DNA from: Parvibaculaceae bacterium
GTDB lineage: Bacteria > Pseudomonadota > Alphaproteobacteria > RS24 > CBDDDD01
Direction: 5' to 3'
Length of the DNA stretch: 64,000 bases
Assembly (NCBI GenBank): GCA_965226465.1
Contig: OZ245362.1
Span: 112,232 to 176,231 of the forward strand
How positions within the stretch are numbered: position 1 is the stretch's first letter; every line of letters starts with the position of its first letter. Under the pieces are notes generated by a model. The model saw only the letters and a list, made by a program, of their open reading frames with translations. It searched no databases and was not told the DNA's origin. Both the position numbers and the translations under genes were made by a program. Below are positions 24,477-26,826 of the stretch, one piece after another.

Positions 24477-24556
24477 AAGTGGATAGTTGAAGTTTTATAG
24501 GGGGGGGTAGATATGGATGAGAAGCAGAACATAAAAGACTAAGGGGAGTATAGACT

Positions 24557-26692
24557 ATGGTAGGCATATATGAAAAATTTTGTAAGACCAAAGACTATAA
24601 TCAAGCCACAAAGGATTGTATTGAGAATACAGTTCGGGAAATTAAAAAAACTGATACGACTGCACAAAAGCCAGGAATGTTGCTCGGTAAAATCCAGAGT
24701 GGGAAAACTCGTACATTTATAGGCGTGACGGCTTTGGCTTTTGATAAGGGCTATGACTTTGCAGTTGTGCTCACCAAAGCTACGAATGCACTAACAAAAC
24801 AAACCTATGAGCGTTTGTGCCAAGAGTTTGAAGAATTCGTTGAGGATGATGAAATCGGAATCTATGATATCATGAATACGCCTGACGAATTAACGCCTTA
24901 TATACGAGGGAAAAAGTTAATCTTCATCGTTAAAAAAGAGACACATAATCTTGATCGACTTGTTAAGTTGTTCGAGAAATATGAAGACTTTAGAACAAAA
25001 CAAGTGCTGATTATTGATGATGAAGCTGACTATGCCAGCATTGGTTTCAAGAGAGATGGAAAACAGATTGACGATGTATCCATCAATACAATCGCTAATA
25101 AGATTAATAGACTGCGCGATTATGGCGCAACGACAAGCTTCTTGCAAGTTACCGCTACGCCTTACAGTCTGTATCTTCAGCCAGACGATATACATTTGAA
25201 CGGCGAAGAATACCACCCTGTCCGCCCGGCGTTCACAGAGCTGGTGCCTATTTATAAAGGATATATCGGCGGTGAGTTTTACTTTGAGGAAAGCGAAAAC
25301 CCTGATTCACCCGCTTATTACCTGCATGTGGACGTGCCAGAGAAAGAATTAGAAGTTCTAGGAAAGCGCGACATGCGGTATCTCAGCAACATACTTGATA
25401 CACCAAATCTAGAAGTGTTTCGCTTCGCGATTTTAAATTTCCTTGTAGGTGGAAGCATTCGGTGGCTACAAGAACAACCCAGAAAGTATAAATGTAGTTG
25501 CATTATTCATATTGAAGTAGCCCAGAAAAAACACACTTGGCAATATAAGCTTGTTGAAACTCTACTTGAAGAGTTGAAGGCTGGCATTGAGAAAGAGCCT
25601 GATGCTCTGGAGAGATTGGTTCGTGATAGCTATAATAATCTTAAGCTATCCATTAAAGATGACCAACTTCCTACGTTTAAGGATGTTTTTACTTTTGTAA
25701 AGAAAGCCATTGGGGATGGCTATGTAGGCATTAGTAAAATTAATTCTGAAGGACAGGTGCAAACGCTACTTGACCGTAAAGGGCAGTTGCGGCTGGATAA
25801 TCCATTTAATATCTTCATAGGGGGGCAGATTCTGGATAGGGGCATTACAATTGAGAATCTCATTTGTTTTTTTTATGGAAGAAACCCTAAAAAGTTTCAG
25901 CAGGACACCGTTCTTCAACATTCTAGAATGTATGGTGCACGCTCAAAGCAGGATATTTCCGTAACACGTTTCTACACCTCTTCCCGAATTTATGATGCCA
26001 TGAAAAAAATGCATCAATTTGATACCGCACTACGCGAAGCCTTTGAGAAGGGGCAGCATAAAGATGGTGTGGTTTTTCTGGAGAAAGATACTTCTGGTAG
26101 CGTCAAAATATGCGCCCCTAACAAAATCCTAATCTCCTCAACCGAAACAATTCGACCATATCGTCGCCTGCTTCCTCGTGGTATGCAGACAGTTTCAGCT
26201 ACGAAGATGACATCTATCGCTTCGCAAATTGAACAGCTTCTAGAAAAGTATAAATTTTATGACGACAGTGCAATTTTGATTGATTGTGATGATGCAGTAA
26301 AGATGCTGGACTTAATCTATGAAAGTTATGAGTTCTCACATCGATTTAAAAATTTGTACTGCAAATGGGATATAGATTCGTATAAAGCCATTATTCACAG
26401 GCTTTGTGTTAGTCATTGTAACTCAGATAAAGAAAGAAAAATATATTGCTTCATTCGGCGCAACAGGAATATCAGTCGGTTCAAGGAAGGCTATGCATTC
26501 ACTGATGCGCCAGATGATGGTCGAACAGATATTCCGTTGGCGAAGAAACATGCTCAAGACCTGCCTGTTCTTCAGTTATTTCATCAGAATGGGAAAAAAA
26601 AGAATGGTTGGCGGGATGTGCCATTTTGGTGGCCTGTTCTGATTTGTCCTAAAAAAACCAAAACATTAGTTTTTACAGCAGAGACTCTATGA
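24557..26692 (+). CDS. SF2-type ATPase with Z1-like C-terminal domain (restriction/defence-associated family)
   Basis: Walker A GKIQSGKT, Walker B LIIDDEADYAS, VTATP, DRGITIENL and QHSRMYGAR motifs, and a C-terminal GWRDVPFWWPVL string as in Z1-domain proteins. AT-rich. RBS ggggag lies 8 nt upstream. Confidence 0.55.
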   Translation: MVGIYEKFCKTKDYNQATKDCIENTVREIKKTDTTAQKPGMLLGKIQSGKTRTFIGVTALAFDKGYDFAVVLTKATNALTKQTYERLCQEFEEFVEDDEIGIYDIMNTPDELTPYIRGKKLIFIVKKETHNLDRLVKLFEKYEDFRTKQVLIIDDEADYASIGFKRDGKQIDDVSINTIANKINRLRDYGATTSFLQVTATPYSLYLQPDDIHLNGEEYHPVRPAFTELVPIYKGYIGGEFYFEESENPDSPAYYLHVDVPEKELEVLGKRDMRYLSNILDTPNLEVFRFAILNFLVGGSIRWLQEQPRKYKCSCIIHIEVAQKKHTWQYKLVETLLEELKAGIEKEPDALERLVRDSYNNLKLSIKDDQLPTFKDVFTFVKKAIGDGYVGISKINSEGQVQTLLDRKGQLRLDNPFNIFIGGQILDRGITIENLICFFYGRNPKKFQQDTVLQHSRMYGARSKQDISVTRFYTSSRIYDAMKKMHQFDTALREAFEKGQHKDGVVFLEKDTSGSVKICAPNKILISSTETIRPYRRLLPRGMQTVSATKMTSIASQIEQLLEKYKFYDDSAILIDCDDAVKMLDLIYESYEFSHRFKNLYCKWDIDSYKAIIHRLCVSHCNSDKERKIYCFIRRNRNISRFKEGYAFTDAPDDGRTDIPLAKKHAQDLPVLQLFHQNGKKKNGWRDVPFWWPVLICPKKTKTLVFTAETL

Positions 26693-26826
26693 GCATAATC
26701 AATAAGCTGATTATCAATGTGATAAGTGGTGATGCTTGAAATGCGCAATACTACATAATCAAATGGCTTTATGAGGTCATGGTCTATAAGCGGGTGGGGA
26801 CTTTCTCCGAGTTTGCATTTTTTCTT

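Follow-up and report, generated by a model that had tools for sequence, protein, structure and literature searches.

A lone SF2 motor gene downstream of tRNA-fMet in a Parvibaculaceae bacterium, probably the orphan of a degraded Type III-like restriction system

Introduction

In a 64,000-nt stretch of a Parvibaculaceae genome (GenBank assembly GCA_965226465.1, contig OZ245362.1, positions 112,232 to 176,231; hereafter the window), a tRNA-fMet gene is followed by an AT-rich gene for a helicase-like superfamily 2 (SF2) motor, an open reading frame (ORF) of 711 codons at 24557-26692 on the plus strand. It is flanked by the tRNA on one side and mutY on the other, and genes for an integrase, a methyltransferase or a nuclease are absent from its immediate surroundings. 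The question raised by this locus is what such a gene does alone, and an earlier note made from the letters of the DNA had offered two answers, a single-gene defence module or the remnant of a larger system. The second is favoured here, as the gene is probably the orphaned, non-restricting motor of a Type III-like system that has degraded, devoid of a nuclease or specificity domain and deprived of its linked Res gene, and a role as a single-gene defence module is improbable. A literature search revealed no publication on such an arrangement.

Results

The probable start of a lost Res gene overlaps the motor stop codon

The evidence for an orphaned motor is found at the 3' end of the gene, where an ATG (26689-26691) straddles the motor stop codon (26690-26692; ...ACT CTA TGA GCA...) and opens the 16-codon ORF MSIINKLIINVISGDA*, in which codons 4-10 read I-N-K-L-I-I-N. 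At equal codon register, the Res sequences of homologous loci read I-D-H-L-I-I-N (L169), I-D-R-L-I-I-N (L171 and L172) and I-N-K-L-I-V-N (L086). The Res-derived motif occurs a single time in the six frames of the window, at this very position, with 0.005-0.01 occurrences expected per 64 kb. A simulation with the base composition of the AT-rich islet gave ~7e-6 for the pattern within 20 codons after the stop, and likewise ~7e-6 for a random 16-codon peptide reaching 6/7 identities. The window copy therefore probably derives from a locus with a linked, Type III-like Res. In such a course of events, an intact DNA-motor gene of the ATP-dependent restriction type would once have been linked to a Res nuclease gene, which would then have been lost except for its first ten codons; because these overlap the motor stop, the gene would be the remainder of a larger restriction system.

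Several observations weigh against this reading. Scored with a profile hidden Markov model (HMM) of the Res N-terminus, the fossil obtains 0.6 bits and comes sixth among 240 local hits in the window; given this score and a length of only 10 codons, its significance rests on position and codon register. No Res C-terminus or Mod remnant was found in the flanks, and nothing of Res is recognizable past codon 10, the search for Mod and Res having spanned the 64-kb window of a 1.38-Mb genome. Other solitary homologues have a different end and lack such a Res stub, as in Legionella, where the gene ends in ...ETI and TAA. Moreover, the motor ORF is fully intact with every family-invariant residue kept, and about a quarter to a third of the homologues, the closest one from Legionella included, are solitary and intact as well, a pattern that would also fit an autonomous function.

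An in-frame match of DA*NAQYYIIKWLYEV to AVNxxGxFGxWxFxV was considered as a further Res/Mod remnant, but an unbiased HMM search gave it no support. Homologues of Mod and Res were not detected in the window, the N6_N4 methyltransferase at 4038-4946 being unrelated.

The protein is a two-lobe motor with a DNA-binding type of C-terminal domain

The N-terminal core of the protein carries a Walker A variant (GKIQSGKT), motif Ia, a Walker B motif (DDEAD) followed by a loop, and motif III (TATP), while motif VI is QHSR, with QxxR spacing; each of the helicase-like motifs quoted in the earlier note was indeed found in the 711-codon ORF. The profile search that had been proposed returned SF2-type Pfam matches (ResIII and DEAD) and PADLOC Helicase_II with 215 bits over residues 15-702, compared to 1065 bits for the H protein of Neisseria. 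With the latter, BLASTP aligned residues 17-698 at 24% identity (E 2e-39), and GKIQSGKT and DDEAD were aligned with its LLGNVQSGKT and DDEAD. All the family-specific motifs as defined in the literature (PMC5861437) are present, namely a glutamine in Walker A, DDEAD, QxxR and a pair of histidines separated by eight positions; the latter are H318 and H326, the counterparts of H282 and H290 in H.CglI. Residues Q47, G49, K50, T51 and D154-D158 are invariant across 60 homologues.

An AlphaFold model built from 60 homologue sequences (pLDDT 81) matched SF2 motors, the best being Type I HsdR (E 9e-9; EcoR124I, PDB 2w00 and 4beb). Both are SF2 motors of the dsDNA-translocase type, with identities of 11-14%, but HsdR has a PD-(D/E)xK nuclease domain of its own and the window protein does not. 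For the C-terminal part, modelled from residue 495 to 711 (pLDDT 87), the sole significant PDB match was 6f1s (E 1.2e-4, probability 1.0, TM 0.65 normalised to the target), which is the C-terminal domain of the CglI H subunit, described as a unique, DNA-binding fold; at the sequence level, no PDB match was found. On this model, the C-terminal domain has the fold of the DNA-binding domain of the CglI H subunit and is not a nuclease. The nuclease fold sought by structure prediction near residues 550-711 did not appear, as only the non-nuclease 6f1s was matched, HincII and others giving E > 0.1. No nuclease Pfam domain was found in the protein either, and the motor lobes together with the 6f1s-like domain cover its full length, with no fused nuclease of the kind present in HsdR and Res.

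This three-domain architecture and its motifs, shared with H.CglI and N.NgoAVII, would be expected if the gene encoded a canonical H subunit of the CglI/NgoAVII type, whose PLD-B3 nuclease and 5-methylcytosine (m5C) methyltransferase were encoded elsewhere in the genome. We regard this as very unlikely, given the low identity and the Helicase_II score far below that of a true member. The protein is also ~80 aa longer than those H subunits, with insertions at about residues 205-290 and in the C-terminal domain. Of the 96 clade members that were inspected, not one had a PLD-B3 R subunit as its neighbour, and in the 64-kb window, where the gene stands alone, neither PLD-B3 nor an m5C methyltransferase was found, nor did tblastn detect the R and M proteins of the Neisseria and Lactiplantibacillus operons. 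Furthermore, the 3'-end fossil comes from a Type III-like Res and not from an R.CglI-like gene. As for MzaC of the MZA anti-phage system (NCBIfam NF041933, PADLOC PDLC02205), the protein reached 59.4 bits, where the NCBIfam equivalog cut-off is 1500, and no Mza-like neighbours of the gene were found.

Homologues are frequently, but not always, linked to restriction-modification genes

Full-length homologues (710-725 aa, 49-68% identity) are numerous in unrelated lineages, and a search of cluster representatives yielded 317 homologues at E < 1e-30. For the analysis of neighbourhoods, 96 loci with full-length members were gathered and all ORFs within 5 kb were clustered; 29 non-redundant loci had at least 2.5 kb on each side. 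Restriction-modification genes were present within 5 kb in 21 of these 29, and in none of the other eight. A homologous N6_N4 'Mod' family (PADLOC MTase_III), usually accompanied by 'Res', was found in 21 loci, an m5C methyltransferase, mostly with Vsr, in eight, and Type I hsdM in five (with hsdR in four of them); others had MvaI/BcnI with an N4/N6 methyltransferase, or no restriction-modification gene. The large Mod neighbours, the commonest in the clade, match the PADLOC Type III model (PDLC03632, ~1e-148 to 1e-166), and the neighbouring Res proteins (~925-1190 aa) combine an SF2 motor with a PD-(D/E)xK end. Ten codons from the start of a Res of this kind are preserved in the window.

The remaining neighbourhoods bear on another explanation, in which the 711-aa clade would be an autonomous or trans-acting defence accessory, its motor working alone or boosting a restriction system of the cell, for example the AT-rich putative Type II restriction-modification pair at 3169-4946, 20 kb upstream of the motor gene, or an unlinked system. 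Such a role would explain the spread and survival of the motor as a single gene, and solitary, intact copies are indeed found repeatedly, in lineages such as Legionella and Flavobacterium, in a metagenome-assembled genome of Omnitrophica and on metagenome contigs. The window copy retains all invariant residues. Among 111 neighbour proteins of 23 loci without restriction-modification genes, Pfam searches revealed no recurrent partner, the neighbours being housekeeping genes, integrases, transposases and toxin-like genes, and the clade adjoins Type I, II and III systems instead of one fixed partner. Against this, the window protein has neither a nuclease nor a recognition domain, its characterised relatives CglI and NgoAVII show ATPase activity only in complex with the R subunit on cognate DNA (PMC4267653), and the Res fossil points to an origin of the window copy in a linked locus. 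In addition, the low GC content at third codon positions (GC3) of the gene suggests a recent arrival, so that the ORF may be intact without having been under selection in this host. An accessory role is thus possible but rather doubtful for the window copy, which as a degraded remnant would be of modest interest, whereas a possible role of the clade's motors as accessories of restriction systems is worth an experiment.

No small partner ORF recurs among the loci, and an HNH_5/PtuB-like gene of 178 aa was present in one locus only. Sister clades (33-43% identity; e.g. P0300, P0316 and P0291) include 19 cluster representatives with a C-terminal extension of ~200 aa that carries the conserved motifs GxKxxExR and NxGxFPF, the first of which recalls ASCH domains, with no support found in Pfam or the PDB. 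Four representatives (P0280, P0355, P0362 and P0393) have an N-terminal extension of ~350 aa with an HExxH (HEMMHAY) metallopeptidase-like motif and no Pfam match. Neither extension is a recognizable nuclease, and they were discarded as clues to a partner.

The gene is foreign and lies between an rRNA unit and its probable terminator

As shown in Table 1, the gene has the orientation of the tRNA and is separated from it by 79 nt; this tRNA is the last gene of a 23S-5S-tRNA transcription unit and the sole tRNA of the window. A Shine-Dalgarno sequence (AAGGGGAG, 24541-24548) lies eight bases 5' of the ATG, and neither terminator-like or promoter-like sites (consensus scan) nor a stable structure (fold z-score -0.35) were found in the spacer. 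The motor gene would accordingly be read by transcription running through from the rrn unit.

Table 1. Positions of the motor gene domains and of the surrounding features in the window
Feature	Position	Strand	Source
23S rRNA	20672-24097		Rfam
5S rRNA	24177-24291		Rfam
tRNA-Met (CAT)	24401-24477	+	ARAGORN; Rfam agrees
Spacer from tRNA to ATG, 79 nt	24478-24556	+	Sequence, consensus scan, fold
DEAD N-core, aa 1-290	24557-25426	+	Pfam ResIII and DEAD; 60 homologues; NgoAVII-type H alignment
C-terminal domain, aa ~505-711	26069-26689	+	AlphaFold model, aa 495-711
16-codon ORF matching Res N-terminus	26689-26739	+	Junction comparison with L169, L171 and L172
Islet tail	26740-26856		First ~50 nt AT-rich
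Dispersed repeat copy	26857-27072	+	Repeat search, terminator scan, fold

The composition of the gene (GC 39.8%, GC3 0.375) differs from that of most long ORFs of the window (GC 0.46-0.57, GC3 0.45-0.65; GC about 50% for neighbouring genes, GC3 about 0.55 for host genes), in agreement with the AT-richness described in the earlier note. Its closest named homologue is from Legionella pneumophila (68% identity), and DNA similarity to the nearest homologues ends at the boundaries of the coding sequence, the islet tail showing none to DNA downstream of homologous genes. By these sequence criteria, the gene is of foreign origin. A phage origin was not supported, as no PHROG match was found. Eight full-length homologues are located in viral or prophage contigs.

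Its position, co-directional with the tRNA, with no terminator between them and the first terminator-like sites only 3' of the gene, would also suit a helicase that had been domesticated for a housekeeping task, with transcription shared with the rRNA operon and a function in ribosome biogenesis or DNA repair. This is highly improbable in view of the foreign composition, of the patchy distribution of a family tied to restriction-modification genes and genomic islands, and of the absence of rRNA-operon synteny from all homologue loci. A tRNA-targeted integrative island agrees with the locus in foreign composition only, since there is no adjacent integrase and, as already remarked in the earlier note, no direct repeat of the tRNA end: its 3' 22-mer occurs once in the window, even with 3 mismatches allowed, and a repeat search gave no suitable direct repeat.

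On the 3' side, ~165 nt of unique sequence separate the gene from a dispersed repeat copy, followed by the convergent mutY (27080-28111; TIGR01084, 324 bits). This copy consists of a palindrome with 24-bp arms (CCCTTTTTTAATAGGCAT...ATGCCTATTAAAAAATAGGG), a GC hairpin, a U-run and a second unit of 89 nt, and folds with -52.5 kcal/mol (z -4.5). The other two copies of the window are at 404-625 and 19697-19873, and the three are 94-97% identical across a 79-nt core. As all of them lie beyond gene 3' ends, the second and third between convergent genes, the repeat before mutY is probably a native terminator region common to the rrn unit and mutY, and the copies probably act as bidirectional terminators. 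The islet had been described as ending in this repeat immediately before mutY; the repeat is there, but it is probably native, and the foreign segment would extend only to ~26800. The simplest reading is an insertion of ~24478-26800 between the tRNA and the native terminator. When genome contigs were scanned with MutY for the tRNA-fMet/mutY junction, the closest match had 54% identity, and a protein search yielded one MutY with 90% identity, on a contig of 2.9 kb that stops within that gene.

The repeat copies also yield spurious proline-rich ORFs, and the region 26750-27750 (repeat plus the 3' half of mutY) shows a very strong strand asymmetry, in which GC skew reaches +0.52 and AT skew falls to -0.56.

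Other features of the window

The rRNA unit (19870-24477 region) has no 16S rRNA, tRNA-Ile or tRNA-Ala upstream of the 23S gene, which is preceded by a minus-strand TM2-domain gene (19870-20331); therefore, the rRNA genes are unlinked, as occurs in some small-genome Alphaproteobacteria. The 23S rRNA is ~500 nt longer than the Rfam model due to an AT-rich insertion (21836-~22560) in a loop at model position ~1218, which we take to be the helix-45 site known for intervening sequences. Within it lies a plus-strand ORF of 219 aa (21868-22527; GC 0.36), whose product is hydrophobic at its C-terminus and gave no match in Pfam, NCBIfam or PHROG. Another AT-rich ORF (61344-61991, plus strand, GC 0.36), encoding a hydrophobic protein of 215 aa with no Pfam match, may be a further foreign islet. 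Finally, the adjacent genes at 8238-11510 and 11557-14712 are paralogues (~1050-1090 aa) with blocks of 74-82% identical DNA, and ~830 nt at 14714-15544 are repeated at 16188-17015 with 83-90% identity.
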